Below, in pieces: positions 13,869 through 47,051 of a stretch of 64,000 nt of DNA. The DNA lies in contig OZ254962.1 of assembly GCA_965276005.1 (NCBI GenBank), forward strand, positions 1,887,809 to 1,951,808, written 5' to 3'. The notes under the pieces were generated by a model. That model was not told the origin of the DNA. It was given only the letters and a program-made list of their open reading frames with translations, and made no database searches. Numbering within the stretch: position 1 is the first letter of the stretch; every line of letters begins with the position of its first letter. The DNA comes from Alphaproteobacteria bacterium (GTDB lineage: Bacteria; Pseudomonadota; Alphaproteobacteria; JAQWUY01). The position numbers and the translations under genes were made by a program.

Positions 13869-15649
13869 TCGGATACCTTAATCGGCAGTTTTACCGCTAT
13901 GTGTACATCTTTTAACGCTTGTTCTGGCACTGCGTTGGGGGCTTGCATCAAAGCGTCTTGAGCGTTTTGGTTTAGGGGAAATGCGGTGATTTGGCGGATA
14001 TTCGGTTCATCTGCCAACAGCATAACGATGCGGTCGATACCCGGTGCTGCCCCTCCGTGTGGCGGGGCTCCGAATTTAAAAGCGTTTATCATACCGGCAA
14101 ATTTTTCGTCGACAAAGTGTTGGTCGTGCCCAGCAATGGCAAAGGCTTTGTACATAATTTCCGGCAGGTGGTTACGAATGGCACCACTGGAAAGTTCAAA
14201 ACCATTACACACAATGTCGTATTGGTATGCCAAAACATCCAGTGGGTGTTGGGTTTCTAAGGCGTGCATACCGCCTTGTGGCATAGAAAACGGGTTGTGA
14301 GAAAAATCGATTTTGCCCAATTCATCACTGTATTCGAACATGGGAAAATCGACAATCCAACAGAAGTTGTATTCTGTATCGCTGATTATATCTAGTTCCT
14401 CGCCGATTTTTGTCCGTGCCAAGCCGGCAAATGGGGCAGCTTCTTTTTCCATGCCACAAGCAAAAAACACCGCATCCCCCGTGTCGATGCCCGCCGCATC
14501 GATAATCATTTGTATACGGTCATCGGATAGGTTGTTGGCGATGGGACCGGCGGCACCGTCCGCTTTCAATTGGATATATCCCAGCCCCGCTTGTCCCTGT
14601 TGCCTTGCCCAGTCGTTGAGTTTGTCGAAAAACGAACGGGGCTTGTCAGCGGCATGGGGGGCGGGGATTGCCCGCACAACACAGCCTTGCGATACCAATT
14701 TGGCAAAGATTTTAAAGCCAGAATCCCGAAACGCAGCGGACACATCGCACATCTCAATAGGGTTGCGAAGATCAGGCTTGTCCGTACCATATTTTAACAC
14801 AGCGGTGTTATAAGCAATACGGGGAAACGGATATGGGGTTACGGACTTTCCATTGGCAAATTCGGTAAATACCCCATGTAGTACCGGTTCAAGGGCATCA
14901 AACACATCCTCTTGGGTAACAAAAGCCATCTCGAAATCTAGTTGGTAAAATTCCCCGGGGGAACGATCTGCCCGGGCATCTTCATCACGAAAACAAGGGG
15001 CAATTTGAAAATATCTATCGAATCCTGACACCATTAACAGCTGTTTAAACTGTTGCGGTGCTTGTGGCAACGCATAAAATTTGCCCGCATGTAAACGGCT
15101 GGGAACGATAAAGTCCCTTGCCCCTTCGGGCGAAGAGGCGGTTAAAATCGGCGTTTGAAACTCGATAAAACCACAATCGGTCATACGGTTGCGAAGGGAG
15201 GCAATGACTTTCGAGCGTAACAAAATGTTTTTCTGCATATGTTCTGTACGCAAGTCAAGAAAACGGTATTTTAACCGCATATCTTCCGGGTATCCTGCGT
15301 CTTGGTTTACGGGAAATGGCAACGGATCCGCTGCCGATTGCACGCAAAAATCTTGAATCTGCACTTCGATAGCACCGCTTGCCAAATTTTTGTTGACGGT
15401 ATCCGCACTGCGGTTGACCACCACACCGGTAACGGTTACTACGGTTTCGTTTGATACGCTCTCGACGGCACCAAACAACGCATGGGTATTGTCGATGACA
15501 CACTGGGTTAATCCGTGCGTATCCCGAAGGTCTAAAAACAACAATCCCCCATGGTCTCGCACCCGGTGTACCCACCCAGACAAACGAACAGTCTCGCCCG
15601 TGTGTGCGGTGTTTAATGCGTTACAAGTATGTGATCGATATGCGTGCAT
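13865..15649 (-). CDS. aspS: Aspartyl-tRNA synthetase
   Basis: 594 aa. Class II aaRS motifs ([24 protein letters not shown]). Bacterial-type AspRS with the GAD insertion domain. Confidence 0.95.
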
Positions 15650-31203: not shown

Positions 31204-34200
31204 GTGGCAAAAACAGCAACATTTATACTGGGTATAGTCATCGCCACCACCGCGCAAGCCAACAAAATACAGTTGCAAGGGGATAGTGCCATATACAACA
31301 GACAACAAAATACCTTGATACTGGATAAAAATGCTTCGGCAAAAAATGCAGAGGGGGTGGTGACTTCGAACAAAATTATATACAATCAAAACACGGACAT
31401 TGTAACCGCTACGGGCAACGCCTATTTTATCTCGTCAAATGTCGATCGACCGATTACCTTAAATGCGGATACGCTTATTTATAACCAAAAAAACAGCGTA
31501 TTGACCCTAAAAACCAACGCCCAAGCCCAAAACAATACGGTAATATTACAATCGACATATGTAACTTATGACGGTAAAAACAATATGTTGACAACACAGG
31601 GCAATACTGTATTTACCTCTAAAACCGATACCATTGTCCTACGGGGGGAAAATGCCACATACGATGGCACCCAACAGCTGTTGCAGCTTTATAAAAACGC
31701 CCAAGCGGAAAATGAACACGCTGTATTACAATCAAACGCCTTGCTATACAATCAAAAAAGCCAAGTGATAGAAACCACCGGCAATACCGTATTTCGTGCC
31801 AAAAACAGTCCCATCATCCTGCAAGGGGAAGACGCTGTGTACGATCGCAACGCACAAACCCTTGTGCTAAACAAAAACGCCCAAGCGGAAAATGAGACCG
31901 CCTTATTACAATCAAACCGTCTGTCTTACGACCAAATAAACGATGTGATTAACACGACAGATAACACGGTATTTACTTCGAAATCAGATGCGACTGTACT
32001 CAAAGGCAACCAAGCGGTGTATGATCGCAAACAGCAATTTATCGTACTCGACAAAGGGGCTAGTGCGGAAAATGCCGATAGCCTATTAACAGCCGATAAA
32101 ATCACCTACGATCAAAACACCAATATCATGGACGCAAAAGGCAAAGTATACTACAGCAACAAGGACATAAACACAAAAAACCGTTTAACCTTAGCCGGCA
32201 ATATAGCACAATACAATGGCAATATGCGTACCCTCATCGTGCAAGACAATACCCGTGCCAAAGGGGCAAAAGGGGAAATGACATCCGATAGCATCGTATA
32301 TGACGAATCGACCGACTTGGTACAGGCAGCAGGCAATGTACAGTACAAAGACACACAGGGTAACATCAGCACTATGGATACCTTAAAATCAAATATCGCT
32401 TTCGATACCATGAGTGGTACCAACATTCAACGCACCTTGCAAAATAATGTGCTGGTTTCTGCCCAAGTTTTTAAAACCTATCCCAACGGCAATATGGAAG
32501 TGGAAAAAGGCACCTATACATCCTGTTTGGTACCAGAGGGAGAAACAATCCCCACTTGGCTACTAAGGGCGGAAAATGTTACCCTCGATGCAGAAGATGA
32601 AAATATTGTCTTTACAAATTCTCGCATGGAATTGGCGGGCGTTCCTGTGTACTATTGGCCGTATTTGGAACAACCCACACCAGATGTGATAAAAAGAGAC
32701 GGATGGCTGATCCCCGATATAGGCACCACCAGCACAATCGGTCTGTTTGTAAAAGCACATTATTATCAATCAAACAGCGACAATTCAGATATGATCGTAA
32801 CCCCCATTTACACCACCCGCAGAGGACAAGGATTAGAAATATCCTATCGTAAAAATGGCAATAACAGTATCACCCGAAACAACATATCAGTGATGCAAGA
32901 TACCGATGTAGATGTCGAAGACAGTGCACAGGGGCATTGGTTTGCGTCTTATGTCAAAAATGCAAGCAATGGCTGGCAATATAAACTGGATCACCAAAAT
33001 GTGACGGAAAAATCGTACTTCAAAACTTATACCCTGCTCAACAAAGCCATCCAAGACAACTTACGCAGTGGAGCAACCGCAACCAAAATTAACCAAAGCT
33101 CCGTCCTTGCCATCGACACCGCATCGTATCGTGATGTGCGACAAGACGCACAACCGGTCACCACTTTATTACCGAGTATACAATATGAAAAAGCCTTTCA
33201 AAGTGCCAACGGCAACAACAATATAAACATCAAAACCATCGTCCGATCTATGCAAAAGCGAGGGCTGCTAAAATCCCATACCGCATCGACAACCGTTACC
33301 TATTCCCGCCCGTTTGTCAGCAAACAGGGGCTGGTTATCAAAACCGATATAAGCGGACGGGGGGACGCATACAACTACCGATATTACAAATCTACCATAA
33401 TAGATGGCAGGGATCGTACAATAGGCACTTTGAATCGCTTTACCCCTATGGCAAGCGTGGTGGTATCCTATCCATTAATCGTAGAAAATCAATACAATGT
33501 ACCAAAAAACCGTCAGGTTATTTTGGAACCTGTGGCAGGTGTATTTATATCGCAGCCAAAAGAAAACCCCGATTGGTTACCCAACAACGACACCGTAGAT
33601 TTTGAGCTGGACGAATCCAATCTGTTCTCCAATAATCGCTATGCGGGGGTGGATAAAATCGATACGGGACACCGCTATTCCTATGGCAGCCGCTTAAAAA
33701 TATGGCAAGACGATGCGTATATCCAAGCGTTCTTAGGACAAAATATCACCCGTGCGGTTCAAAACCCCTTATCAGACTTTATCGGTAGCCTGTACGCCAA
33801 GTGGCAAAATATCGACATGTATGCAAATTTTGAACTGGACAGCGATGATTTTAGCACCAGAAAAATAGAATCAAATGTGGAATACATACGGGAAAAATAT
33901 ACACTTAGTGGGGGCTATACAAAAATCAACCCCCGTGAAACATCGCAACTACAATCCATAGCACAAACAAAAATGGGTGTTGCCTATCACATCAATACTC
34001 GATGGCGATTAACCACAGAACACAGCTACGAATTTGAAGAAAGTAAAAAAGGTCTGATTCGTCAGTCACTGGGCTTAGAATACAATACAGACTGTGGATG
34101 TTTTGCCGCCAGCTTGCAATACAAACAAGATTATTCAAAATCCAGAAGCACCCCAGACAAATCGCTGTTTATCCAAATGAAGTTCCGTGAAGTGGGCAAC

Positions 34201-34218
34201 TTTCAAGAACAATTTTAA
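31204..34218 (+). CDS. lptD: LPS-assembly protein LptD with expanded, internally repeated N-terminal (OstA-like) region
   Basis: C-terminal OstA_C/LptD barrel region (…WPYLEQPTPD…GYTKINPRE…) ending in Phe. Start is probably GTG 31204 right after the lptG stop. N-terminus VAKTATFILGIVIATTAQA is a signal peptide. The track ORF 30862.. is an over-extension into lptG. Confidence 0.8.
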   Translation: MAKTATFILGIVIATTAQANKIQLQGDSAIYNRQQNTLILDKNASAKNAEGVVTSNKIIYNQNTDIVTATGNAYFISSNVDRPITLNADTLIYNQKNSVLTLKTNAQAQNNTVILQSTYVTYDGKNNMLTTQGNTVFTSKTDTIVLRGENATYDGTQQLLQLYKNAQAENEHAVLQSNALLYNQKSQVIETTGNTVFRAKNSPIILQGEDAVYDRNAQTLVLNKNAQAENETALLQSNRLSYDQINDVINTTDNTVFTSKSDATVLKGNQAVYDRKQQFIVLDKGASAENADSLLTADKITYDQNTNIMDAKGKVYYSNKDINTKNRLTLAGNIAQYNGNMRTLIVQDNTRAKGAKGEMTSDSIVYDESTDLVQAAGNVQYKDTQGNISTMDTLKSNIAFDTMSGTNIQRTLQNNVLVSAQVFKTYPNGNMEVEKGTYTSCLVPEGETIPTWLLRAENVTLDAEDENIVFTNSRMELAGVPVYYWPYLEQPTPDVIKRDGWLIPDIGTTSTIGLFVKAHYYQSNSDNSDMIVTPIYTTRRGQGLEISYRKNGNNSITRNNISVMQDTDVDVEDSAQGHWFASYVKNASNGWQYKLDHQNVTEKSYFKTYTLLNKAIQDNLRSGATATKINQSSVLAIDTASYRDVRQDAQPVTTLLPSIQYEKAFQSANGNNNINIKTIVRSMQKRGLLKSHTASTTVTYSRPFVSKQGLVIKTDISGRGDAYNYRYYKSTIIDGRDRTIGTLNRFTPMASVVVSYPLIVENQYNVPKNRQVILEPVAGVFISQPKENPDWLPNNDTVDFELDESNLFSNNRYAGVDKIDTGHRYSYGSRLKIWQDDAYIQAFLGQNITRAVQNPLSDFIGSLYAKWQNIDMYANFELDSDDFSTRKIESNVEYIREKYTLSGGYTKINPRETSQLQSIAQTKMGVAYHINTRWRLTTEHSYEFEESKKGLIRQSLGLEYNTDCGCFAASLQYKQDYSKSRSTPDKSLFIQMKFREVGNFQEQF
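31261..32356 (+). repeat. Seven tandem ~52-aa (~156-bp) repeats within lptD
   Basis: Repeat pattern 'L.L.KNAQAEN...LQSN.L.YNQ....I.TTGNTVF.SK.D' occurs seven times (e.g. LTLKTNAQAQNNTVILQSTYVTYDGKNNMLTTQGNTVF; LQLYKNAQAENEHAVLQSNALLYNQKSQVIETTGNTVF). Confidence 0.7.
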
Positions 34219-34219
34219 A

Positions 34220-35062
34220 ATGATTATCGACGCTATTAACGCCTTGCCCAGTCTGCAACAAACCGTACGGGATTTTCACTTGAGTCCCCAAAAAAAGTGG
34301 GGGCAAAATTTTTTATACGATATGAACATCACCCACAAAATCGTTCGCTGTGCCGGCGATGTCCGCAGCGGCACAGTGATCGAAGTGGGACCCGGACCGG
34401 GGGGACTAACCCGTGCCATACTGATGGCAGGGGCAACAGATGTGATCGCCATCGACAGGGATATACGGGCGGTACACGCCTTGACACCCCTAGTAAATGC
34501 CAGTGACAATATGTTACAGGTACAACACGGCAATGCGGGACACGCTGACATTTGGCATATGGGATCCGCCCCCCGGCACATTATTGCCAACCTGCCGTAC
34601 AATGTGGGTACACAGCTGTTGTTGTCGTGGATAAAGCACCGCCAACACTTTGCCAAAATGACCCTGATGTTTCAAAAAGAAGTCGCCGAACGCATCACCG
34701 CCCCACAGGGACACAAACACTATGGCAGGCTTGCCGTACTGTGCAACTGGGCGTGTCATACACAAATTGCCATGACCCTGCCCCCCAGTGCATTCACCCC
34801 GCCACCTAAGGTAGACAGTGCCGTAGTAACCTTAATCCCCCGTGCCATTCCCCTAGGCAGGTGCAGTTTACACAGCTTGGAAACAATCACCAAAGCCGCT
34901 TTTGGACAACGGCGAAAAATGCTCCGTTCCTCGTTAAAATCGCTGGCGGTCGATTCGCTGGCGTTACTAGAACACTGCAACATTGCCGCCACACTTAGGG
35001 CAGAAGAACTGCACATACAACAATTCTGTGCATTGGCAAAAGCCTATGAGGCGATGGTATAA
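34220..35062 (+). CDS. rsmA: 16S rRNA (adenine1518/1519-N6) dimethyltransferase
   Basis: 'GQNFLYD...', 'VIEVGPGPGGLT', 'ANLPYNV' KsgA motifs. Follows lptD as in the conserved lptD-surA-pdxA-ksgA region. Start MIIDAINAL. Confidence 0.9.
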   Translation: MIIDAINALPSLQQTVRDFHLSPQKKWGQNFLYDMNITHKIVRCAGDVRSGTVIEVGPGPGGLTRAILMAGATDVIAIDRDIRAVHALTPLVNASDNMLQVQHGNAGHADIWHMGSAPRHIIANLPYNVGTQLLLSWIKHRQHFAKMTLMFQKEVAERITAPQGHKHYGRLAVLCNWACHTQIAMTLPPSAFTPPPKVDSAVVTLIPRAIPLGRCSLHSLETITKAAFGQRRKMLRSSLKSLAVDSLALLEHCNIAATLRAEELHIQQFCALAKAYEAMV

Positions 35063-35263
35063 TCAAAATTATAGGGAAAATTATATAAAATGATACCGTC
35101 TTGGTATACTGTATAATTTTCGTTTTGTGGGATGCATCGTGAGGTTTAAGGGGCTAACGCCCCTCGCTCGTATGATGTTGATTTTGCCGTACTGCGTACG
35201 ACAAAATACAACACTCGTTACCCCGCTCTGCGCCACAATGCCACTGCGTGGCAAGCAGTGGCA

Positions 35264-35288
35264 AGCGGTTGCAACCGCTTTTAATATA
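35264..35288 (+). terminator. Rho-independent terminator after rsmA (palindrome GCGGTTGCAACCGC plus a T-run)
   Basis: gcggttgcaaccgcTTTTaat. A second hairpin GGGGCtaacGCCCC sits at 35151-35164. Confidence 0.55.
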
Positions 35289-35336
35289 CTCCACAAACAA
35301 TCGGTTATATAAACTTCACCATCTTACAAAAAACCT

Positions 35337-36335
35337 CTATTTATACTTACGGCGATTATTAAACAGCTGATCTAACTTGGCATTGGGGGCAAAGTGTTTT
35401 GTATTTACCTGTTTCCAACCGCCAAACGCCGTATCAATATCGTACAATTTCACCGCAGGGAAATTGTCCGCATACTTGTTCGATACCACAGGGTGATTTA
35501 CCCGGTTGTTAAATTGGGCAATAATTTCTTGTCCTGCCTCAGAATATAGAAAGTCTAGATACGCTTTTGCCTGTTGTGTGGTACCTTTTTTTTGTGCCAC
35601 TTTATCGACAACTGAGATGGGAAATTCCGCCTTTAAAGAAGTTTTTGGCACAATCCGTTGGTATGTATCCGCCCCTTCTTTGGCGATAATATTTACCACT
35701 TCTGCCTCAAAAGTTACCAATACATCGCCAATTTTACGGTCGGTAAAGGTGGTGGTTGCCCCCCGTCCGCCCGTGTCGAAAACCTTGACCCTCGAAAACA
35801 GTCGACTTATGAAAGCGTCTGTTTTTGCACCTTCGCCATAATTTTCAACCCCATACGCATACGCCGCCAAGTATGTATAACGGGCGTTACCAGAAGTTTT
35901 CGGATTGGGAAAAATCACATCCACATCCGATCGAGCCAAATCAGACCAGTCTTGAATGTTTTTCGGATTCCCCTTTCGTACCAAAAACGCCGGCAGCGAA
36001 TAATAAGGCGAAGCGTTATTTGCCAGTCGCCCTTGCCAATCCGCATCGACAAAGCCTTTTTCCGCCAAAATATCGATGTCCTTCCACTGGTTAAAAGTCA
36101 CCACATCCGCCCCCAAACCCTGTAAAATTGCTCGTGCTTGTTTGCTGGTACCCGCATGGGATTGCTTAATCGCAATATCATCGCCGGTTTTTGCTTTATA
36201 GTCGGCAACAAACGCCGGGTTAATAGTTGCAAACAATTCCCGAGCAATATCATAAGACGCATTCAACAAAGTCGTCGCAGAAGCCGAAGTAACCAACCCA
36301 ATCGCCACAACAGTAGAGAAAAATATTTTTTTCAT
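35337..36335 (-). CDS. sbp: Sulfate/thiosulfate ABC transporter substrate-binding protein
   Basis: 332 aa with signal peptide MKKIFFSTVVAIGLVTSASA. Sbp/CysP family-like throughout. Confidence 0.85.
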   Translation of the reverse strand: MKKIFFSTVVAIGLVTSASATTLLNASYDIARELFATINPAFVADYKAKTGDDIAIKQSHAGTSKQARAILQGLGADVVTFNQWKDIDILAEKGFVDADWQGRLANNASPYYSLPAFLVRKGNPKNIQDWSDLARSDVDVIFPNPKTSGNARYTYLAAYAYGVENYGEGAKTDAFISRLFSRVKVFDTGGRGATTTFTDRKIGDVLVTFEAEVVNIIAKEGADTYQRIVPKTSLKAEFPISVVDKVAQKKGTTQQAKAYLDFLYSEAGQEIIAQFNNRVNHPVVSNKYADNFPAVKLYDIDTAFGGWKQVNTKHFAPNAKLDQLFNNRRKYK

Positions 36336-36656
36336 GTTTAGTTTCCTTATATTAAAATACAGTGTAAAAAATAATAATTTGGCATATCACAGTCAAATTA
36401 AGTACAATTATAAGCAAAATATTTTATTATGCAACAATAAAATATATTTTTATTTTAATTACACTTTTTTTATGTTTAATGTAGATGTAGCATTTACGAA
36501 AGTGTGATTTTATTCCATACTAACGGATTATACTCTTTATGCGTACAAATACGACACACCTATCAACAAAAAACACAGCAAATAAAATACATACAAAAAA
36601 TGTTTGATTTTTGCCATAAACGCATGTATAAGGTCAGTGGCAAACCAAAAAGCACC

Positions 36657-36731
36657 GCCGTCGTAGCTCAGTGGTAGAGCGCGTCATTGGTAATGACGAG
36701 GTCGGAAGTTCAATTCTTCTCGACGGCACCA
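36657..36731 (+). tRNA. tRNA-Thr (anticodon GGU), CCA encoded
   Basis: Acceptor stem GCCGTCG/CGACGGC, U8-A9, D-stem GCTC/GAGC, anticodon stem CGTCA/TGACG with loop TTGGTAA (anticodon GGT), T-arm GGAAG-TTCAATT-CTTCT, discriminator A, CCA. 75 nt. Confidence 0.9.
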
Positions 36732-36941
36732 TTTAAAAAGTGTTGTAAATCAATATGTTAAATTCTATTTTGAATTTTTAAACCTTCCATTTTTAAATCT
36801 AATTTTTTGACTTGTACCGACAGAATACCTTGCCACAAAGGTGCATATGGGGTGCATAATCGAGTGTTTTTTTTGATATTGTGTGCATTTAGTATAAATT
36901 ATACCTTGCAATTTGTATAATTTTCATGCAAAATACAAGGT

Positions 36942-38111
36942 ATGTTAAAGCGATATATTACAGATTTTGTACATAAAAGTGTATCCCAAATGCCGGCGGT
37001 GGCGTTGTTGGGGGCTCGGCAAGTGGGGAAGACTACGCTTGCTAAGACCTTTATGGCGGATGGGAATGCCATTTATATGGACTTGGAAAATCCTCGGGAC
37101 TTGTTACGGCTCGACGACCCTTTGGCGTTTTTTGCGGAACATGCGGACAAGTTGATTATTCTGGACGAAATCCAACGCATGCCCAATATGTTTACGACCC
37201 TGCGAGGGATGATTGATACCAACCGTGCTAACGGTCGTAGGGTTGGACAGTTCTTATTATTAGGCTCTGCATCTATGGATTTAATGCGTCAATCGTCCGA
37301 AAGTCTTGCCGGTCGTGTGCGGTATGTACATATGGGCGGATTAAATGTACTGGAAATCGGGAAAAGCCGTCAAGATATGAATCGCCTGCTACTGCGGGGG
37401 GGATTTCCCGAAAGTTACTTAGCGGTCGATGACAGTTCGGCTATGGATTGGGTGCATGATTTAATAAGTACTTATCTGGAACGGGACATTCCGCAAATGG
37501 GCTTTAATGTACCTGCAGACAGGTTGCGGAGATTGTGGGCTATGCTTGCCCATTTGCAAGGGGAAACGGTTAATGTCAGCACCTTAGCCACCAATTTGGA
37601 AGTACAACGGGCAACTGTCAATCACTATTTGGATATTTTAACTGATTTATTATTAGTTCGTAAATTACAACCGTATCACGCCAATGTAAAAAAACGCCTA
37701 GTAAAATCCCCCCGATACTATATTCGGGACACGGGCATACAAAATTGTTTGTTGGGCATAGAAAATCACGATGCGTTATTATCCAACCCCATACTAGGCA
37801 AATCATGGGAAGCGTTCATCATAGAAAACATCCACTCTGTCCTGCCGAAACGGGCAGAAACATACTTTTACCGCACGCAAGCAGGGGCAGAAATAGATCT
37901 CATCATAAAATTCCCCACAGGCGACATCTGGGCAATCGAAATAAAATACGGACAATCCCCAAAAATCAGCAAACATTTTCATACGACCTGTCAAGACATA
38001 GGGGCAACCCAAAAATACATCATATACGGCGGGAACGATACATTCCCCATCAGAAATGGCGTTGTTATGACAGGGGTAAAGGCGTTTATGGAAAGACTTG
38101 GGGAATACTAA
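36942..38111 (+). CDS. AAA ATPase (AAA_14-like) with C-terminal DUF4143 / PD-(D/E)xK-like domain
   Basis: Walker A 'GARQVGKTT', Walker B 'LIILDEIQ'. C-terminal 'GAEIDLIIKFPTGDIWAIEIKYG' is a PD-(D/E)xK nuclease-like motif. Typical DUF4143-family ATPase. Confidence 0.8.
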   Translation: MLKRYITDFVHKSVSQMPAVALLGARQVGKTTLAKTFMADGNAIYMDLENPRDLLRLDDPLAFFAEHADKLIILDEIQRMPNMFTTLRGMIDTNRANGRRVGQFLLLGSASMDLMRQSSESLAGRVRYVHMGGLNVLEIGKSRQDMNRLLLRGGFPESYLAVDDSSAMDWVHDLISTYLERDIPQMGFNVPADRLRRLWAMLAHLQGETVNVSTLATNLEVQRATVNHYLDILTDLLLVRKLQPYHANVKKRLVKSPRYYIRDTGIQNCLLGIENHDALLSNPILGKSWEAFIIENIHSVLPKRAETYFYRTQAGAEIDLIIKFPTGDIWAIEIKYGQSPKISKHFHTTCQDIGATQKYIIYGGNDTFPIRNGVVMTGVKAFMERLGEY

Positions 38112-38150
38112 CACCTTGCTTTAACCGTCTGTTTACCATACTTTTTTAAA

Positions 38151-38865
38151 GGGCTGTACCAGATAACTAGCCTAAATATTTTTTAGTCCACTGTTTTTTT
38201 TGTGATTTAAAACCACTGTGATTAAATCGCCACTCACATTCTTTCAAGTATAGCACGAAATTCTGCTTAGAAATACTATTATATGTACGCATATGGCGTT
38301 TAGCTTGGTTCCAAAAATTTTCAATGCCATTTATGTGATTATCACCATCTGCAAACTCTGTGCTATGGTTAATCCGCATATGGTGAAAATCTGTAACATC
38401 CAAAGCATTATATCCTTTCCAACCATCACTATATACGATACTATCAGGAACAACTTTGCTTTCAATAATTGGTATTAAAGTATCACCACTTGCATCAGGT
38501 ATCATTTGCGTATAAACCTTTTCGCCCCTTTTAAGTAAGCCAAATACAGGTGTTTTCGCCTTCGCACCCCGCCCCCTTTTTCCTTTACGGCTACCACCGA
38601 AATAACTCTCGTCAACTTCTATTTTACCACCAAAATAATTACTGCCTTGCTGTTCCATTTCATAGAAAATTATCTCTCTTAAACGATGAAAATAATATGC
38701 TGAGGTCTTATGATTAACACCTATCAATTCATTGGCACAACGAGCTGTCGTTCCTGCAACAAAGTGTTCAATTAATTGCTCTTGCTTATACCAACTTATC
38801 CGACTTTTTTTAAATAATCTATCCATAATAACAACCTATCATAAGTTAGTTATCTGGTACAGCCC
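38151..38865. mobile_element. IS1595-family insertion sequence (compact, ~715 bp) with 19-bp perfect terminal inverted repeats
   Basis: Left IR GGGCTGTACCAGATAACTA (38151-38169). Right IR is its reverse complement TAGTTATCTGGTACAGCCC (38847-38865). Encloses the single transposase ORF. Confidence 0.75.
38167..38826 (-). CDS. IS1595-family transposase (N-terminal zinc-ribbon-like region plus DDE domain)
   Basis: 219 aa. '…YSDGWKGYNALD…HMRINHSTEF…GIENFWNQAKRHM…' is the DDE_Tnp_IS1595 pattern. Confidence 0.8.
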   Translation of the reverse strand: MDRLFKKSRISWYKQEQLIEHFVAGTTARCANELIGVNHKTSAYYFHRLREIIFYEMEQQGSNYFGGKIEVDESYFGGSRKGKRGRGAKAKTPVFGLLKRGEKVYTQMIPDASGDTLIPIIESKVVPDSIVYSDGWKGYNALDVTDFHHMRINHSTEFADGDNHINGIENFWNQAKRHMRTYNSISKQNFVLYLKECEWRFNHSGFKSQKKQWTKKYLG

Positions 38866-38952
38866 CAAATTTTAATTTCATGCTTTGCTCTTCTGTATGG
38901 AGCACCGAATCTTTATCTAGTGCTAATCGTCTTGTGTCAAACTATGCTGACA

Positions 38953-39129
38953 CTAATTGCTTTGAGTTAAGTCTAATTCACCATCAGCAACGGCTAATAA
39001 CAAATTAAATACATAAACAGTTGGTTTTCTGCCTGATCCTTTTTCTAACACAGATATTAAATTTTCATCTACTAGTTTCCTCAGAATACTATTTGCGGTT
39101 TCCCTGCTCTTAATATCTGCAACTTCCAT
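38953..39129 (-). pseudogene. Remnant encoding a Fic-family-like C-terminal winged-helix segment
   Basis: 'SRETANSILRKLVDENLISVLEKGSGRKPTVYVF' matches the C-terminal wHTH pattern of Fic/DOC proteins. No Fic core upstream. The 5' part of track ORF 38953..39384 overlaps the cysJ remnant and looks spurious. Confidence 0.3.
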
Positions 39130-39238
39130 GAAGTTACTTGAATTGATAATTGGAAATCTAAAAAACGCATCCAATGCCCCGATAACAGATGGAGAGTGGG
39201 TTGTTTCAGTAAACTTTTGTTTCATCATTTCATGCGTT

Positions 39239-39616
39239 CTTAGAACCAATGCGTGTGGGGACAATTGGCTGTTTTTTGGCGATCGCACCGAAGCCAACGA
39301 TTTTTTATACAGTGAAACCTTAACCACATGGGAAAAACAAGGCAAACTGCGGCTGTCCTTGGCATGGTCCCGTGACCCTAACACCCCAAAAACCTATGTA
39401 CAAGACCTGATGTTACAACAGGGCGAAGACATTTTTAAACAACTTGAGAAGGGGGCATACTTTTACATTTGCGGTGATGCATCGAAAATGGCAAAAGATG
39501 TGGACGCCGCCTTATTAGAAATCGTATCGACACACGGAGCTATGGCAATAGAAAAAGCCACCGCATACATTAACGACCTAAAAAAGAATAAACGCTATGT
39601 GCGCGATGTGTATTAA
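39239..39616 (+). pseudogene. cysJ: 3' remnant of sulfite reductase (NADPH) flavoprotein gene cysJ (FAD/NADPH-binding C-terminus only)
   Basis: 'WLFFGDRTEANDFLY…YFYICGDASKMAKDVDAALLEIV…RYVRDVY*' reproduces the CysJ / cytochrome-P450-reductase C-terminal end (...RYQRDVY). The N-terminal ~430 aa are absent. Confidence 0.7.
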
Positions 39617-39637
39617 AGTGACCATAGTATCGCTGCA

Positions 39638-39659
39638 ACAAAAAAGTAATCAGACGACC
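39638..39659. repeat. Left copy of ~22-bp imperfect direct repeat flanking the MTase/DUF262-HNH cassette
   Basis: ACAAAAAAGTAATCAGACGACC versus the right copy ACAAAAACAGCAATCAGACGACC (42132-42154). The 12-mer AATCAGACGACC is shared perfectly. Confidence 0.7.
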
Positions 39660-39753
39660 TTTAGGAATTTTTATACATAACTCCGAAAGCCCATCCCCAT
39701 AAATTGCTACTATATGAACGGAATTTCACCTATATTCCATAAAATATCGACTG

Positions 39754-40839
39754 TTATCTGCTAGATTTTCTACGATTGCAATCTTTGCATAACATTTGAC
39801 AGTTTTGTTCCACCGTTTTACCGCCCTGCGACCATGGGGTGATGTGATCGCCTTCCATTTGTTTAATGTCAAAGTGTTCGTTGCAGATTATACATATACC
39901 GTTTTGTTTTTGGTATACTCTTTGTTTTATTTGGGGAATAAAAGCCCTTATATTTAAATGTCGTTCGTCATGAGTTAGGATATAAGGATAGATACCCTTT
40001 TGATTTTGTACATCTTCGTCTTCAATAAGTTTTGATATTTCTTTTTCTAATTCTGTCGTATCATAAGTCTTATCTTTAAATTCATTATACAGATCCCCCC
40101 AATTTACACCTTTCATTATTTTAACTCGTTTTTCTATAAAAGTGCCTTTTACCCAAGTAATGACATTTTGAAAGTATTGCCATAAAGCAAGTGCATTAAG
40201 ATCATGCTGATGATTCGACATATATGGTTCAATATTTTTTTCTGAAATCCATTTTATTACTGTTTCTAAATAGTCTTGTCTAATAGCAGAGCCGTTCAAA
40301 TAATCATGTCCAATTTGATAGGCAGGACACCCATTTTTACTGAAATACCTTTTAGCATCGGTGACCCAAGAACCCGAATAAACAGCATTTCTTAATTCTT
40401 GTTCTGTTAATTTTTCGCCTGCTATGTTAATAGTTTGAAACCATTTTAATTTTTCACTATCTTTGCCGCTACAAATATAAACCATTAATTTATAATCTAA
40501 AATTTGCTGTTGTTCGTCCGATTGCAAATTATGAAAACTTCTTAAATTATAAGAAAAATCACCATTGATATATTGGCATAAGGATAGGGTTCTTTGTTGC
40601 CCATCTATAACTTCAAAAGTTCCATTCTCTTTAAGAGCCCAATACATGACATTTAATGGAAAATTGTTTGTTACAGTATTTATAACTGCGTCCCGTTGTG
40701 CGTCTTTATAGATAAACTCCCGTTGATAGGGAGGGCGAATATCTAACTTTCCACCATACCCTAAAATGCCATTCTCTTGGTTGTCTTCATATCCATCTGT
40801 TAGTTCACGAACGGTTATTTCTTTAAGTTCTATTTTCAT
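39754..40839 (-). CDS. DUF262 (ParB-like NTPase/nuclease, DGQQR motif) plus C-terminal HNH endonuclease domain protein
   Basis: 'IRPPYQREFIY', 'FEVIDGQQRTLSL' (DUF262 hallmarks). C-terminal 'CIICNEHFDIKQMEGDHITPWSQGGKTVEQNCQMLCKDCNRRK' is an HNH motif. Start overlaps the methyltransferase stop (ATGA). Confidence 0.75.
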   Translation of the reverse strand: MKIELKEITVRELTDGYEDNQENGILGYGGKLDIRPPYQREFIYKDAQRDAVINTVTNNFPLNVMYWALKENGTFEVIDGQQRTLSLCQYINGDFSYNLRSFHNLQSDEQQQILDYKLMVYICSGKDSEKLKWFQTINIAGEKLTEQELRNAVYSGSWVTDAKRYFSKNGCPAYQIGHDYLNGSAIRQDYLETVIKWISEKNIEPYMSNHQHDLNALALWQYFQNVITWVKGTFIEKRVKIMKGVNWGDLYNEFKDKTYDTTELEKEISKLIEDEDVQNQKGIYPYILTHDERHLNIRAFIPQIKQRVYQKQNGICIICNEHFDIKQMEGDHITPWSQGGKTVEQNCQMLCKDCNRRKSSR

Positions 40840-41930
40840 AATTTTTTATTCCTTATAATTATGCGTGCGTATATACTAGAATACAATGCACCAGTTTCAC
40901 AGTCCTTAAATGCAGGTAGTTTTTTATCTTTTGTGGGATTATAAAGTCTATATAAAGTCCCTTTTGCATTCATTGTATATATACCTGTTGATTTCCCGGT
41001 TTTTTTGTCTAAAATCTCCATTTTTCTGTTAGTATCAAATTCAATAGAGCCAACAATCCCCAATGCTATAATTTCAAATTGTTCGGGATTATATTTATCC
41101 ATAAAAGTAATAGGGACACCCATCTCACCAGAATAATCCATTGGAATATCTTTGGTTTTGTCGACATTGATTGCATTAAAATTTTCATATTTCGGGTACG
41201 ATTCAGGTTCATACATTTTATAAAGAATTAAATCTTCGTAACGAGACTTATATTCCAAGTTTGTAAACCAACGAACACCTTTAACTCGGATAAATTTATT
41301 ATTATTTTCATCTACTCTAAACCCTGACGCTTTTAATGGATAGTCCTTGGGAACTCCAAATTCTCTGTCGCCACTTTTTATACTTGCCCCTAACCATATT
41401 TTATTATCACGAATCAACGAAAAAATTTCCTTATAAGTGAGTGCATTTAAATTTCCGATAATTAAAAACTGTTTATCATATTCGATTAGTTGTGCAACAT
41501 ACTCTCGAAACAGTGAAAATGGGGGGTTGGTAACAATAATATCTGCTTGTTTTAAAATATCGATACATTCATTACTACGAAAATCACCATCGCCATCAAG
41601 ATAATGAACGCCTATCTCTTCTATATCGGGAACATTGTTGCCATTTTTATCACCATTGTATTCAAGATAAATGGCTTTTTCGCTATCATTTTGACTAAAA
41701 AAATCCCTATTTTGATTTTTGTAACAAATGGTTATGAGTTTTTTTAAGCCAAGATGTTCAAAGTTATAAGAAAAATAGTGAAAAAAATTACTTACTCGTG
41801 GGTCATCACAATTACAAAGAACAGTTTTACCTTTAAAATGTTCCTTGTAATGTTTCAATTCTTTTTCAATATCCGAAAGCTGCGTATAGAACTCGTCCTT
41901 TTTTTGCTTTTTTGCTTGCTGTAAACCCAC
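40836..41930 (-). CDS. DNA methyltransferase, N6-adenine/N4-cytosine class (NPPF motif IV), EcoRI-methylase-family-like N-terminus
   Basis: 'DIIVTNPPF' catalytic motif. N-terminal 'KKQKKDEFYTQLSDIEKELKHY' resembles the EcoRI-type adenine methyltransferase family. Annotated start is GTG; an upstream ATG with a GAGGA SD lies beyond the poly-G tract (see findings). Confidence 0.7.
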   Translation of the reverse strand: MGLQQAKKQKKDEFYTQLSDIEKELKHYKEHFKGKTVLCNCDDPRVSNFFHYFSYNFEHLGLKKLITICYKNQNRDFFSQNDSEKAIYLEYNGDKNGNNVPDIEEIGVHYLDGDGDFRSNECIDILKQADIIVTNPPFSLFREYVAQLIEYDKQFLIIGNLNALTYKEIFSLIRDNKIWLGASIKSGDREFGVPKDYPLKASGFRVDENNNKFIRVKGVRWFTNLEYKSRYEDLILYKMYEPESYPKYENFNAINVDKTKDIPMDYSGEMGVPITFMDKYNPEQFEIIALGIVGSIEFDTNRKMEILDKKTGKSTGIYTMNAKGTLYRLYNPTKDKKLPAFKDCETGALYSSIYARIIIRNKKL

Positions 41931-41940
41931 ATTTCTAGTG

Positions 41941-41955
41941 GGGGGGGGGGGGGGG
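41941..41955. repeat. G15-16 homopolymeric tract (poly-C on the MTase coding strand), 10-25 nt upstream of the MTase GTG start
   Basis: catttctagtGGGGGGGGGGGGGGG(G)taaat. The longest homopolymer in the window. Confidence 0.85.
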
Positions 41956-42131
41956 TAAATATTTGTTTTTGTTGACTATTTTGTGTCATTACGCTATCAA
42001 TTCCTCATATGTTAATTTATTATCAAAGCCCCATCAAGTAGGCTGTTCGTATGGTCAAGTGTTAGTTCACAATTTCTTGTTTGGTAGCAACACTGGTATT
42101 TTGGATCATAATATCCCTGCAAATCGTAAAC

Positions 42132-42154
42132 ACAAAAACAGCAATCAGACGACC
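42132..42154. repeat. Right copy of the direct repeat flanking the MTase/DUF262-HNH cassette
   Basis: ACAAAAACAGCAATCAGACGACC. Confidence 0.7.
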
Positions 42155-42181
42155 GCTTTAATCTAAAATTAAAAGTACATA

Positions 42182-42775
42182 TCATGTAACAACATACTCG
42201 GATATGGCAATAATCACAGACACTAGCCCAGCGGTCAAGAATATTGTGCGATAACTTGAAATATGGATGTCTCGTTTGGTATCTTTGCGTAGCTGTTCTA
42301 TATCCTTACGCAAATCAACAATTTCCCTACGCAGATCGGCAATTTCTCTGTGAATATTTGCAATTTCCTCACGCACATCTGCAATTTCTTTTTCGGTTTC
42401 CACCCTTAATTTTGCAATTTCCTCATGGACATTTGTAATTTCTCTATGAATATTTGCAATTTCTTGCTTAGTCTCCACTCGTAAGCTTTCAATCTCTTTA
42501 TGGATATTTGCAATTTCTTTATGCACATCCGCAACCTCCCGTTTGCTATCGATACGCATTTGTTCTATATCCTTGTGGATAATAGCTATTTCTTTTTGAA
42601 TTTCTGCTACATCTTGTTTGGTAGCAACATTGGTGTTGGCAACCACCGCATAAGCAAGTGCCTTAGCATTTTGTTCTGACATGCCCATTCGTATCAGTTC
42701 TTGGGCGGTGCTGTATGTATCTGCAGTAGCAATTTGTAGTTCCATAGATCTTCTCCTTAGATGCGATTTTACCAC
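42182..42775 (-). CDS. Coiled-coil protein with tandem 11-aa (hendecad) repeats and C-terminal TM anchor
   Basis: Repeats KEIANIHKEIE / REITNVHEEIA / EEIANIHREIA. C-terminal hydrophobic 'IFLTAGLVSVIIAI'. The DNA carries the matching 33-bp tandem repeats (about 42290-42600). Confidence 0.5.
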   Translation of the reverse strand: MVKSHLRRRSMELQIATADTYSTAQELIRMGMSEQNAKALAYAVVANTNVATKQDVAEIQKEIAIIHKDIEQMRIDSKREVADVHKEIANIHKEIESLRVETKQEIANIHREITNVHEEIAKLRVETEKEIADVREEIANIHREIADLRREIVDLRKDIEQLRKDTKRDIHISSYRTIFLTAGLVSVIIAISEYVVT

Positions 42776-42935
42776 AGATTTACTTGAGAATCAACAACAG
42801 ATATTTGTCTTTTGTACATTTATACTTGTCGCCATTTTTTACGGGGGGCAAATAAACATCCACTGTCATCCCTTCCTAAATACCCCTAATGAGATGATAA
42901 AAGTATAAATCATAACAAAAAAATCTTATTTACAT

Positions 42936-43424
42936 ATGGAGTTAAATATGGGTATAATAGGCTTCGATTTTGCAAAATACACGGGAATATCTATGCCAAC
43001 ATTAACGGAAAAAACCAGTTTACGATTTAAGCATATACGCACCGCACATTTGTCAGAAAATACCGAAGACTATGTGGAATTGATATACGAATTATATCAA
43101 CAAAAAGGCGTTGCCCGCAGTGTCGACATCGCTAAGTACTTGGGGGTTAGCAAACCAACAGTCAATAAAACCTTAGCCCGTTTGCACAAAGAAGGGTTTG
43201 TCATTTGCCAAGCCTATCATCCCATTGCCCTAACAGACAAAGGCACAGAACTTGCCAAATATTGCCAAGCCCGCCACAAAGTTGTTCTCGACTTCCTGTT
43301 GGCAATCGGCGTTCCCAAAAATGTAGCAGAAATCGATGCAGAAGGCTTGGAACACCACGCCAGCCCGGAAACACTACAAATGTTTGAAGACTTTGTGCAT
43401 AGACAAAACAACACCGATACCTAA
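42936..43424 (+). CDS. DtxR/MntR-family metal-dependent transcriptional repressor
   Basis: 162 aa. N-terminal wHTH 'VARSVDIAKYLGVSKPTVNKTLARLHKEGFV'. Dimerisation/metal-site region 'HKVVLDFLLAIGVPKNVAEIDAEGLEHHASPETL'. Confidence 0.75.
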   Translation: MELNMGIIGFDFAKYTGISMPTLTEKTSLRFKHIRTAHLSENTEDYVELIYELYQQKGVARSVDIAKYLGVSKPTVNKTLARLHKEGFVICQAYHPIALTDKGTELAKYCQARHKVVLDFLLAIGVPKNVAEIDAEGLEHHASPETLQMFEDFVHRQNNTDT

Positions 43425-43429
43425 TATAT

Positions 43430-44347
43430 ATGGATACGCATAACACATTATACATTATTGGACCGAGCGCATCGGGAAAATCAGATTTCGCCGTACGATT
43501 GGCACAGCACTATAATGGTGTCATCATAAACGCCGACAGCATGCAAGTATACCAAGGTGTACGCATAGTAACCGCTATTCCCGATACACACACCCAACAG
43601 GGCATACCGCATATGCTGTACGGGTGCGTATCACCCCTAAAACCGTTTGATGTGACCCAGTGGCGACAGCGGGCTGTGGCGTGTATACAACAGGTACTAC
43701 AAATGGGCAAAACCCCCATTTTATGCGGGGGAACGGGATTATATGCGGCGGCAATCATGCACGGCTTATCGCCGATTCCCGATATAAACCCAACCATTCG
43801 CCAAACCGTCCGTAACATGGATGCACAAATGCTGTATACGGCTTTGCAAACCGAAGATCCCATCATGGCAAAACGATTACACAGGGGCGATACACACCGT
43901 TTGGCACGGGCATTGGAAATCGTCCGCAGCACAGGTACCAGCCTTGCCCATTATCAAAACATACCGCCGATTCTCATTCCTGCGGATATTCGAATCAAAA
44001 TGGTGGCACTTTTGCCAAAACGACAGACTCTATACGACCGCATCAACCACAGATTCGCCCATATGTTCAAAAACGGGGCGGTCGACGAAGTACAACAGCT
44101 GTTGCAAATGGGCGTCGATGACACCGCCCAAATCTTGCGGGCAATCGGCATTGCCGAAATTGTCGCATATATACAAGGAAAATACGATAAACACACCGCT
44201 ATCACGCATGGCAAAACCGCTACCCGCCGCTATGCCAAACGACAAATAACCTATATCCGCCACCAATTAAACCCACACATTATTATTGATGATACACAGC
44301 TTTTTGACATGCGGGATATACTTTTATATAAAAACAATGTACACTAA
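43430..44347 (+). CDS. miaA: tRNA dimethylallyltransferase
   Basis: 'LYIIGPSASGKSDFAVRLAQ…INADSMQVYQG…IPH…LCGGTGLY' are canonical MiaA motifs. 305 aa. Confidence 0.9.
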   Translation: MDTHNTLYIIGPSASGKSDFAVRLAQHYNGVIINADSMQVYQGVRIVTAIPDTHTQQGIPHMLYGCVSPLKPFDVTQWRQRAVACIQQVLQMGKTPILCGGTGLYAAAIMHGLSPIPDINPTIRQTVRNMDAQMLYTALQTEDPIMAKRLHRGDTHRLARALEIVRSTGTSLAHYQNIPPILIPADIRIKMVALLPKRQTLYDRINHRFAHMFKNGAVDEVQQLLQMGVDDTAQILRAIGIAEIVAYIQGKYDKHTAITHGKTATRRYAKRQITYIRHQLNPHIIIDDTQLFDMRDILLYKNNVH

Positions 44348-45177: not shown

Positions 45178-45315
45178 GTGGTTTTTTTTATGGTGAAAGT
45201 TAAACACACTGTAAACAATATTTGACCAAAAATGCTTTTTTAGATAAAAAAATGACAAAATTTCGTTAAAACATGCTACTATTTAAAAAATGTATTGTTA
45301 AAAAAGAGTAATATT

Positions 45316-46482
45316 ATGTTAAAAAAGGTAAGTGTTTCTAACTATCATAGCATAGGACAACAAGCAGTTGAAATGTGTTTTGATTCTGAACTACCCATTT
45401 ATATTGTGATGGGGGGGAATGCATCGGGCAAGACAACTTTATTAAAAGCTATTTCCTTTATCTTTTGGTTTATGAATTCTGATGAACAACATGAGAAAGA
45501 CGAAATGGTGTTTTTCCCTCATGTACTGCATAAAACATCACCCTCTGTATTTGCAATAGAATATACAGATGGCAAAGCCAAATATCAATATCAACTTGAA
45601 TTCAAAAATGGTACTTTAGTCAGAGAAGAATTTTCAAAACATGTGACTAGGGGATATTCAAGAGTGTATTCTGTGTTTCGTACAAAAAACAATGTAGAAT
45701 ATAAACTTTCAAACGCATTAAAATCAGTCCTTAATGAAAATGATAAAGTGCGTTATGGCAAGTTGAAAAATTGTTCGTTTTACAGATTTTTGCAAAATAC
45801 GGGGTATTTTGATTTATTGAATATCGATGTCAATTTTGTAAAAAATATTGTGAGTAATTCTAGTAATATTGGGCGTCAAATCCAACAAGATGGAGTAAAC
45901 ATGTTTTTTAGCTTAGCCAATATATTACAAGAAAATAAAAAATTGCAGGACTTTTTAATTAACCATTTGCAAATGTTCGATTTCAATATATCAAAATTTG
46001 TTTTTGATGACAAGCAAGCACTAAGAAATGATAAAGGAGAACTAGAAACTGTAACGACTACAAGCTTGGTTCATAAAACTGAAAGTTCTAAGGCAACACT
46101 ACCATTGCTCTTTGAATCAGAGGGAACTTATGCAGTGATACCGTTTTTGATCAATTTGTATGAGTTGATAAAAAATGGCGGCGTTATGATATGGGATGAG
46201 CTAGAAAACAGTACACATCCATTGGTCGCCAAAAAATTTATATCTGTATTAAAACAATATGTACAACATCATAACATACAAATAATTTTTGCCAGCCATA
46301 TGAATGCGTTACTGAATGAATTTGAGAAGAAAAGTATATTTTTTGTGGAAAAAACCGATCTGTTGGAAACAGATGTTTATACATTAAATGATGTCGAAGG
46401 TGTGCGTAAAGATGAAAATTTTGCTGATAAGTACATTGGGGGGGTATATGGTGGCACTCCAGATATTATGGGAGTTGCCTAA
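45316..46482 (+). CDS. ABC-type AAA_21/AAA_15-like ATPase (AbiLi-like component of an abortive-infection/OLD-like pair)
   Basis: Walker A 'GGNASGKTTLLKAI', Walker B 'IWDELENSTHP', H-loop 'FASHMN'. Likely start is the second Met (MLKKVSVSNYHSIG), the typical N-terminus of these ATPases. Low GC (~30%). Confidence 0.7.
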   Translation: MLKKVSVSNYHSIGQQAVEMCFDSELPIYIVMGGNASGKTTLLKAISFIFWFMNSDEQHEKDEMVFFPHVLHKTSPSVFAIEYTDGKAKYQYQLEFKNGTLVREEFSKHVTRGYSRVYSVFRTKNNVEYKLSNALKSVLNENDKVRYGKLKNCSFYRFLQNTGYFDLLNIDVNFVKNIVSNSSNIGRQIQQDGVNMFFSLANILQENKKLQDFLINHLQMFDFNISKFVFDDKQALRNDKGELETVTTTSLVHKTESSKATLPLLFESEGTYAVIPFLINLYELIKNGGVMIWDELENSTHPLVAKKFISVLKQYVQHHNIQIIFASHMNALLNEFEKKSIFFVEKTDLLETDVYTLNDVEGVRKDENFADKYIGGVYGGTPDIMGVA

Positions 46483-47051
46483 TGGGTAAAAAAAGAAATA
46501 GAAAGACAGGGTATTTGTTTGTACTTGAAGGTGATGATGAGGAAAAATTATTGTGTGTATTTAAAAAGCTATATACAATACATAAAAAACACATTAGTTT
46601 TAAAGAAGTATTTGCCAAGGGAGGCGATCCAGATTCCATTATTACCTCTGCTTGTCACAAAAAGGATACAGTAGACTTTACATATGTATTATTAGACAAT
46701 GACATACCTATGAAATCAGATAATAAGACACTCTGGCAAGCTTGGACTATAGGAGGGACGCCTATTAATGGGAAAACACCATCACAACTTGTTGTTCTAA
46801 ATAAGAACGATAGAAATCCAATCTTAATAGTTTCTGAACCATTAGCTATGGAAAATACATTATTGGATTTGTTTTCTATTGAGGTAACTGCTGATAACAC
46901 AAAGGATTTAAAAACGCAGGTCAGAAACCATCTTGGGACAAATTGGGACAAAAAAATTACTCGAAAAATGTTAGAATCATCAACTAACTCTGTCATTCAA
47001 GAATTGGTGAAAATATTTCGAGAAATAGAAAACATTTCGCTCAGAAATTAA
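46482..47051 (+). CDS. RloB/DUF4276-like Toprim-fold protein (AbiLii-like partner)
   Basis: N-terminal '[15 protein letters not shown]' (RloB-type 'l.v.EGe.tE' motif) and 'LLDNDIP' (DxD). Start overlaps the ATPase stop (TAATG). Confidence 0.55.

Follow-up and report, generated by a model that had tools for sequence, protein, structure and literature searches.

We analyzed a 64,000-nt stretch of the genome of a low-GC (guanine plus cytosine) alphaproteobacterium (assembly GCA_965276005.1, contig OZ254962.1, forward-strand positions 1,887,809 to 1,951,808; hereafter, the window, to which all coordinates refer), focusing on positions 36336-39616 and the genes that flank them. This segment lies between an intact sulfate-binding protein gene (sbp) and a type II restriction-modification (RM) cassette. 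It contains a tRNA-Thr gene, an intact ATPase gene, an insertion sequence (IS), and two truncated genes, one the tail of a fic gene and the other the tail of a gene similar to cysJ, that face each other across a common breakpoint. The features of this region, including the open reading frame (ORF) that spans the breakpoint, are as follows.

35337-36335, minus strand: sbp/cysP, gene for a sulfate/thiosulfate-binding protein of 332 amino acids (aa), intact, with an NCBIfam match
36336-36656: AT-rich spacer separating sbp from the divergent tRNA-Thr gene, 321 nt, GC 25.5% versus 44.3% in the window
36657-36731, plus strand: tRNA-Thr(GGU), CCA encoded (ARAGORN, anticodon GGT; Rfam RF00005, 73.6 bits)
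36942-38111, plus strand: ATPase with AAA_14 and DUF4143 domains, candidate PDC-S01 of PADLOC, 389 aa, intact (Pfam, PADLOC)
38151-38865, minus strand: IS1595-family IS of the IS1016 subgroup type, 715 bp, with 24-nt terminal inverted repeats
38167-38826, minus strand: transposase gene of this IS, 219 aa, intact, DDE type
38953-39246, minus strand: 3' remnant of fic, C-terminal winged-helix region only, about 97 codons plus stop (phmmer, BLASTP)
39128-39616, plus strand: chimeric ORF of 162 aa, consisting of 40 codons antisense to the fic remnant and 122 CysJ-like codons
39247-39616, plus strand: 3' remnant of a gene for a CysJ-like sulfite reductase flavoprotein, last 122-124 codons, ending RYVRDVY
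39620-39659: left copy of an imperfect direct repeat, 40 nt, its first base 4 nt past the cysJ-like stop codon
39754-41930, minus strand: type II RM cassette (nuclease and methyltransferase)
39754-40839, minus strand: GmrSD_N/HNH nuclease (Pfam PF03235 and PF01844; PADLOC REase_II, 1.1e-129)
40836-41930, minus strand: EcoRI-like adenine methyltransferase (Pfam PF13651, 5.3e-142; PADLOC MTase_II, 6.5e-122)
42104-42154: right copy of the direct repeat, 51 nt (11 nt extra), downstream of the coiled-coil gene

An initial annotation of this stretch had named the main features, from sbp to the RM cassette, and all of them were found at the positions it gave, with matches far beyond chance, except that the Fic remnant had been given the wrong length. 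The intact sbp, the very AT-rich spacer of about 320 nt, the tRNA gene, the intact DUF4143 ATPase, the IS1595-family element of exactly 715 bp and the methyltransferase/nuclease cassette that comes next in line were all confirmed.

The stump at the right end of the segment aligned to the last 122 residues of Escherichia coli CysJ (residues 253-374 of 1DDG) with an E value of 5e-30. It also aligned to positions 416-539 of the 539 positions of the profile NF004859 ("sulfite reductase subunit alpha") and to positions 475-597 of the 597 positions of TIGR01931. The likeness to E. coli CysJ (PDB 1DDG/6EFV) and to NF004859 therefore extends end to end over the last 122-124 residues and takes in both the motif CGDA..MAKDV and the KRYxRDVY at the terminus. 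The differences are equally clear: the scores, 157 bits against a cut-off of 432 for NF004859 and 147 bits against a cut-off of 668 for TIGR01931, are far below those of complete proteins, and the flavodoxin (flavin mononucleotide, FMN) domain, the flavin adenine dinucleotide (FAD) domain, and the NADPH-binding GPGTG loop are missing, so that about 80% of the protein is gone. The M(I)MVGPGTGxAPF motif that includes this loop stands just upstream in all homologues in our alignment (A1) and is absent from the stump. At the columns that are invariant in the other 11 proteins of this alignment, the stump keeps the same residue in each case. Full-length CysJ-like homologues matched the window only at 39245-39613, and no other fragments of such a gene were found in the window.

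The full-length relatives of the stump fall into three classes, namely, proteins of 547-592 aa with the CysJ architecture, proteins of about 380 aa with FAD/NAD domains only, and molybdopterin fusions of about 1340-1430 aa. All three classes are 51-62% identical to the stump over the tail. Because of this equal similarity, "CysJ-like sulfite/nitrite reductase flavoprotein" is the defensible name for the stump and a safer one than cysJ. Thus, the claim of the initial annotation that the 3' end of a cysJ gene ending RYVRDVY is present stands as far as a CysJ-like tail is concerned, but the strict identification with cysJ does not. The best homologue (62% identity, locus L087) is a protein of 591 aa that scores above the NF004859 cut-off and is encoded directly downstream of a NirA-family hemoprotein gene. 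A NirA/CysI-type gene was present within 8 kb in 28 of the 80 loci that were anchored on cysJ-like genes. In the window, a tblastn search with the NirA-family protein of L087 detected no NirA/CysI fragment, in line with the initial annotation, which had noted that cysI was missing.

The second stump is on the opposite strand. A library-wide phmmer search with the ORF at 38953-39384 retrieved 165 representative proteins at E <= 0.001. The full-length matches (362-377 aa) contain Fic_N and Fic domains and were aligned only through their residues of about 280-368. By BLASTP, residues 47-135 of the ORF aligned with residues 280-368 of P0243 (374 aa, Fic_N and Fic) at 48% identity with an E value of 5e-24. 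Compared with Fic proteins of about 370 aa, which consist of Fic_N, Fic, and a C-terminal winged helix, the remnant matches the last of these parts at up to 48-53% identity and lacks the Fic_N and the catalytic Fic domains; indeed, a Pfam search of the ORF found no domain at all, and a PDB sequence search with the remnant gave no meaningful match. The remnant of a Fic-like winged-helix protein described in the initial annotation is thus a real gene remnant, although the alignment extends up to 39246, so that its length is about 97 codons rather than about 60.

The two homologies abut. On the minus strand, the homology to fic runs as far as 39246, and on the plus strand, the CysJ-like homology sets in at 39245-39248, so that the two remnants meet 5'-end to 5'-end at 39246/39247 without any spacer. 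A single deletion across two divergent genes would be enough to give both remnants. With both reading frames uninterrupted and the family-invariant residues retained by the CysJ-like tail, this deletion is recent relative to neutral decay. Neither of the two stumps can encode an active enzyme, because the CysJ-like tail has lost both of its flavin domains (flavodoxin and FAD) along with the GPGTG loop, and the Fic tail is devoid of Fic_N and Fic.

The plus-strand ORF that runs across the junction has been deposited as a public protein (P0001, 162 aa, 100% identical), located on a contig of 2,965,790 bp. It matches CysJ only from residue 41 (position 39248) onward. No homologue was found for residues 1-40, and the same DNA codes for fic on the other strand. 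The 162-aa ORF is most likely a chimeric pseudogene artefact. One tblastn extension and alignment A1 indicated a weak plus-strand likeness of 39155-39247 to the GPGTG region; this candidate was rejected, as on the opposite strand this stretch codes for the fic tail, with 48% identity.

At the other end of the segment, the product of sbp scored 425.7 bits against NF008106 (CysP; cut-off 308; protein residues 2-330) and 411.2 bits against TIGR00971 (cut-off 155.5), and it is 82% identical to P0392 over the full length. The three closest homologues (82, 74, and 72% identity) are all encoded in operons of the type sbp-permease-permease-ATPase, that is, sbp-cysT-cysW-cysA, and such sbp-cysTWA operons were seen in the loci L084, L085, L086, L001, and L012. 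In farther homologues (Aliihoeflea, Vibrio), sbp is likewise followed by cysT and cysW, as identified by NCBIfam, and in the Vibrio locus by cysA, too. In the window, the stop codon of sbp marks the end of the DNA homology to L084, and the 3' end of the convergent gene rsmA lies only 275 bp beyond it. No remnants of cysT, cysW, or cysA were detected by tblastn anywhere in the 64-kb window with queries from the homologous operons, which agrees with the absence of cysTWA reported in the initial annotation. Thus, sbp is intact but locally orphaned, its usual cysT-cysW-cysA partners having been lost. Searching genome contigs with sbp gave best matches of not more than 61% identity. None of the large related genomes was among the 120 best sbp homologues, so that sbp is either missing from them or divergent. 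The spacer upstream of sbp contains promoter-like hexamers on both strands, not above regional chance, and no Rfam family; it is probably the promoter region of both sbp and tRNA-Thr.

In E. coli, sbp is a stand-alone, monocistronic gene that is unlinked to cysPUWAM. Therefore, an orphan sbp alone is no proof of lost function. The window resembles this configuration in that the gene for a periplasmic sulfate-binding protein stands on its own, far from permease and ATPase genes. However, the nearest homologues of the window gene (72-82% identity) are all operon-linked to cysTWA, and its solitary state therefore looks secondary.

The ATPase gene and the IS separate the tRNA gene from the two stumps. 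In the ATPase, Pfam identified AAA_14 (1.7e-25) and DUF4143 (2.1e-45, positions 1-160 of 160), and PADLOC matched the profiles PDLC04790 (1.7e-90) and PDLC04789 (4.9e-58, residues 1-351 aligned to positions 1-357 of a profile of 375 positions). The protein thus resembles PDC-S01 over most of its length, with the limit that PDC-S01 is itself a computational defence candidate, known here from sequence alone.

The transposase of the IS scored 173 bits against NF033547 (cut-off 75; positions 2-214 of 215) and matched PF12762 (2.6e-35), and the 24-nt terminal inverted repeats of the element are 92% complementary. The catalytic signature of the IS1016 subgroup has been described as E-DESYFG...VYTD...HINGIENFWSQAK...ECEFRFN (PMC12561309). 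The translated ORF contains the motifs VDESYFG, VYSD, HINGIENFWNQAK, and LKECEWRFN, which match this signature. The length criterion was about 700-745 bp, combined with inverted repeats at the ends, and the 715-bp element lies within this range. The likeness to the subgroup, exemplified by ISApl4 (712 bp; PMC12561309), comprises the size, the single DDE transposase of about 219 aa, the inverted repeats, the A/T-rich flanks, and the motifs DESYFG, VY(S/T)D, HINGIENFW.QAK, and ...KECE.RFN. There are also differences. Between the transposase and its nearest plasmid- or chromosome-borne relatives, from Psychrobacter, Vibrio, Providencia (ISEc75-like), and Neisseria, the identity amounts to no more than about 62-65% (about 64% for the nearest among plasmid records). 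The IS is present in a single copy, as no further copies of its ends were found in the window. A 7-9-bp target-site duplication is absent, the flanks being TTTTTAAA and CAAATTTT. IS1016 elements normally make target duplications of this length, except for copies that are involved in rearrangements (PMC12561309). Therefore, at least one flank has been altered after insertion; we infer a post-insertion rearrangement, rather than exclusion of the element from the IS1016 subgroup.

To the right of the CysJ-like stump, the RM cassette is enclosed by the imperfect direct repeats listed above. The two copies are identical at 36 of 40 positions and differ in addition by the 11-nt indel, and neither half recurs elsewhere in the window. 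The right copy was picked up by a minus-strand terminator scan, and the left copy is similar by eye; promoter and terminator scans as such were not above the shuffled expectation. Insertion of RM complexes accompanied by a long duplication of the target has been described, with the criteria of R and M genes, a size of less than 20 kb, and repeats of more than 30 bp (Furuta, Abe and Kobayashi, 2010; PMC2853133). The insert of 2.4 kb between the 40-nt and 51-nt repeats falls within these sequence criteria. The arrangement is similar to the insertions of that study in that the insert contains only the R and M genes, without a transposase or integrase inside; it differs in that the repeats are imperfect, and the target duplication is putative here. 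The arrangement of the repeats implies that the cysJ-like and coiled-coil genes were convergent neighbours before the insertion, and that the cysJ-like tail would thus be in its original place relative to mntR-miaA.

Two minor features adjoin the cassette. A homopolymer of 16 G is located at 41940-41955, just upstream of the GTG start codon of the methyltransferase gene (minus strand). With 17 or 14 G, translation from an ATG at 41989 reads into a protein of 383-384 aa, and with 16 G a stop codon follows after 44 aa. Either the tract acts as a phase-variation switch or its length is an assembly error at a homopolymer. The coiled-coil gene (42182-42775) encodes a membrane-anchored protein and contains 21-nt periodic repeats (family D1), and a 26-nt copy (D4, 92% identical) of its 5' part is found at 42075-42100, just downstream of the gene and beside the RM insertion.

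A further candidate defence locus was found at 45295-47051, where a gene for an AbiLi-like AAA ATPase (45295-46482; PADLOC, 3.2e-57) is paired with a gene for a 189-aa partner without a family match. This AbiL-like pair lies between miaA and mnmG and looks like a second defence insertion, near the origin-proximal genes mnmG-rsmG-parA-parB.

The GC contents divide the region into two groups. By a GC content of about 44%, sbp (44.6%, equal to the window mean), tRNA-Thr, and the CysJ-like tail (44.3%) look resident, whereas the IS (35.9%), the fic tail (34.4%), and the RM cassette (31-33%) are of low GC and look foreign. The left border of the region was compared with related genomes, which were recognized by RsmA homologues. 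Four related genomes or contigs were marked in this way, with RsmA identities of 78, 69, 63, and 62% and with genome sizes of 2.63, 2.58, and 1.84 Mb; among named organisms, Aestuariispira comes closest, at 57%. The block hda/AI-2E...ndk-rpmF-holC-pepA-lptF-lptG-lptD-rsmA is common to all four relatives. Beyond rsmA, the gene order differs in each of them: in L081, it is followed by genes for a short-chain dehydrogenase/reductase and an alcohol dehydrogenase; in L083, by an FMN dehydrogenase gene together with an AAA_15/DUF4276 pair; in L167, by a transposase fragment along with the ribosomal protein operon; and in L169, by gmk-mltG-acpP. The DNA alignment between the window and L081 ends at 35062, which is the last base of rsmA. 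The site is therefore a clade-wide synteny breakpoint.

We consider it likely that the locus is a mosaic variable region, formed directly behind rsmA at a recurrent breakpoint of synteny, and that its genes do not make up a functional system. The history might have begun with the insertion of foreign DNA that carried fic and, likewise, of the IS1016-type element. A single deletion across the divergent genes would then have fused the fic and cysJ-like tails, removing about 280 codons of fic and about 415-470 codons of the cysJ-like gene, and would probably also have taken the NirA/CysI-type hemoprotein gene, the usual upstream neighbour of cysJ-like genes. The cysTWA genes downstream of sbp would have been lost separately. 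Finally, the RM cassette would have been inserted independently between the cysJ-like stop codon and the convergent coiled-coil gene, duplicating a terminator-like target of about 40-50 nt. Today, sbp, the tRNA gene, the PDC-S01-type ATPase gene, the transposase gene, and the RM pair are predicted to be still working. With the PDC-S01 candidate, the type II RM cassette, and AbiLi, the region fits a variable defence island better than a shrinking genome.

Several observations weigh against this history. The closest relatives have RsmA identities of only 78 and 69% and are not syntenic after rsmA, and we therefore infer the order and the number of the events. The comparison with the relatives covered the rsmA side, and the right boundary (coiled-coil gene, mntR, miaA) is outside its range. 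The ATPase gene has a native-like GC content of 45.0% and may be resident rather than imported. The fic/cysJ-like junction is 381 nt away from the end of the IS, so that the IS is not directly tied to the deletion. Last, two sulfur-related genes are situated 2.9 kb from each other, which may reflect an ancestral linkage that is not visible in the more distant comparison loci.

This last point leads to the explanation favoured in the initial annotation, namely, that one ancestral sbp-cysTWA...cysI-cysJ locus around tRNA-Thr was worn down, as part of the reductive evolution of the genome, by insertions and deletions that followed one another. Such erosion would account for an sbp gene without the cysTWA genes that accompany its nearest homologues, for a cysJ-like gene reduced to a tail, and for the window-mean GC content of both at so short a distance; in addition, the related genomes are small (1.56-2.63 Mb), and surA is present in only one of them. 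Nevertheless, we regard it as unlikely. No cysJ-like gene was present within 10 kb on either side in any of the 83 sbp-anchored loci, and no sbp within 8 kb on either side in any of the 80 cysJ-anchored loci, so that, with 0 of 163 loci, linkage of sbp with cysJ-like genes is not the rule and an intact sbp-cysTWA...cysJI arrangement was not encountered. Moreover, two deletions, one at the fic/cysJ-like junction and the other downstream of sbp, explain all of the missing sequence, and an orphan sbp is not decay in itself, as the E. coli gene illustrates. A contig of 2.97 Mb with several defence systems is untypical of strong reduction, and the proposal of reductive genome evolution is not borne out for what is mainly a defence island at a clade-wide breakpoint. 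What stands of the eroded sulfur locus are the two gene stumps, the stranded sbp, and the low-GC foreign insertions, but not the single ancestral locus. The initial annotation had also pointed to integration at the 3' side of the tRNA gene. Accordingly, 36732-39246 could be the leftover of an integrase-type genomic island in the 3' end of tRNA-Thr, with the integrase gene, attR, and the 5' part of fic removed by the deletion that truncated the cysJ-like gene. The 3' ends of tRNA genes are frequent integration sites, the IS and the fic remnant downstream of the tRNA are foreign-looking, and the distal end has indeed been deleted; an example of RM genes together with an integrase at a tRNA has been described (PMC2853133). 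Yet a search with the 24-mer at the tRNA 3' end, allowing three mismatches, matched only the tRNA itself in the window, and no 14-24-nt repeat of this end, and hence no attR-like site, was found downstream of the tRNA in the window. Neither the ORF list nor Pfam, NCBIfam, or PADLOC revealed an integrase-like ORF, domain, or fragment at 36732-42935, from the tRNA to mntR. In genomic islands, the integrase is usually placed next to the tRNA, whereas here the adjoining gene is the DUF4143 ATPase with its native-like GC content. An origin by such integration thus appears quite improbable. The sole other exact match to 14 nt of the tRNA 3' end (TCTCGACGGCACCA) is located at 15460-15473 in aspS, 21 kb upstream of the tRNA; it is probably a coincidence, as about 0.2 matches are expected by chance. 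An Rfam scan of 34500-44000 gave tRNA-Thr as the sole family match, and a search for the neisserial DUS, as a possible hint at the organism, gave none.

There is very little room for the notion that the two remnants are functional genes in their own right, that is, a short CysJ-C-terminal NAD-binding protein and a winged-helix protein of about 90 aa, each with its own start codon. The open frames, the annotation of the 162-aa ORF as a protein, and the many CysJ-like proteins of 143/145 aa and Fic-C-terminal-like proteins of 82-88 aa in the databases are in its favour. However, these short database proteins all start at a single internal Met that is conserved (in MVGPGTG for the CysJ type and in MK..F for the Fic type) and are mostly encoded on contigs of about 1 kb, as expected of truncated gene calls. 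The tail in the window, in addition, is without even the GPGTG loop, the first 40 codons of the 162-aa ORF are antisense fic, and the fic homology runs upstream past the candidate Met to the junction. We therefore rejected the 143/145-aa and 82-88-aa proteins as stand-alone families, since they are most likely truncated gene calls from one conserved Met. Such calls (among P0002-P0120 and P0241-P0390) can mimic stand-alone families in length statistics. It would be similarly far-fetched to assume that the head-to-head fusion made a new expressed gene, with the 162-aa ORF or the ORF for a winged helix-turn-helix protein of about 90 aa retained in another function, with an orphan Sbp beside it that would serve in sensing instead of transport and, separately, a type II methyltransferase made phase-variable by the G16 tract.

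All components of the locus are of known kinds, and their arrangement reflects ordinary wear at a rearrangement hot spot rather than a new system. The main value of the analysis is in annotation and metabolic inference; it opens no long-standing question and will not surprise a specialist. The public database entry of the 162-aa "protein" should be marked as that of a chimeric pseudogene. The locus supplies neither a sulfite reductase flavoprotein nor a sulfate permease, and sulfate assimilation either proceeds via genes elsewhere or has been lost. Furthermore, a rearrangement hot spot after rsmA that gathers defence genes is described here in a poorly known alphaproteobacterial lineage.

The comparison with the related genomes also yielded some observations on the genes to the left of the breakpoint. 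In the interval from lptD to rsmA, L167 alone among the five genomes has a rotamase (surA-like) gene. In the LptD ORF (30862-34218), degenerate repeats (NAQAEN...) make up a long N-terminal region, and the length of LptD varies from 669 to 1068 aa among the relatives. An ORF of 1684 aa at 20954-26008 has no counterpart in L081 and is related to a part of the gene for a 7381-aa protein that is located after rsmA in L083. A tract of 11 G at 20928-20938 lies beside this ORF.

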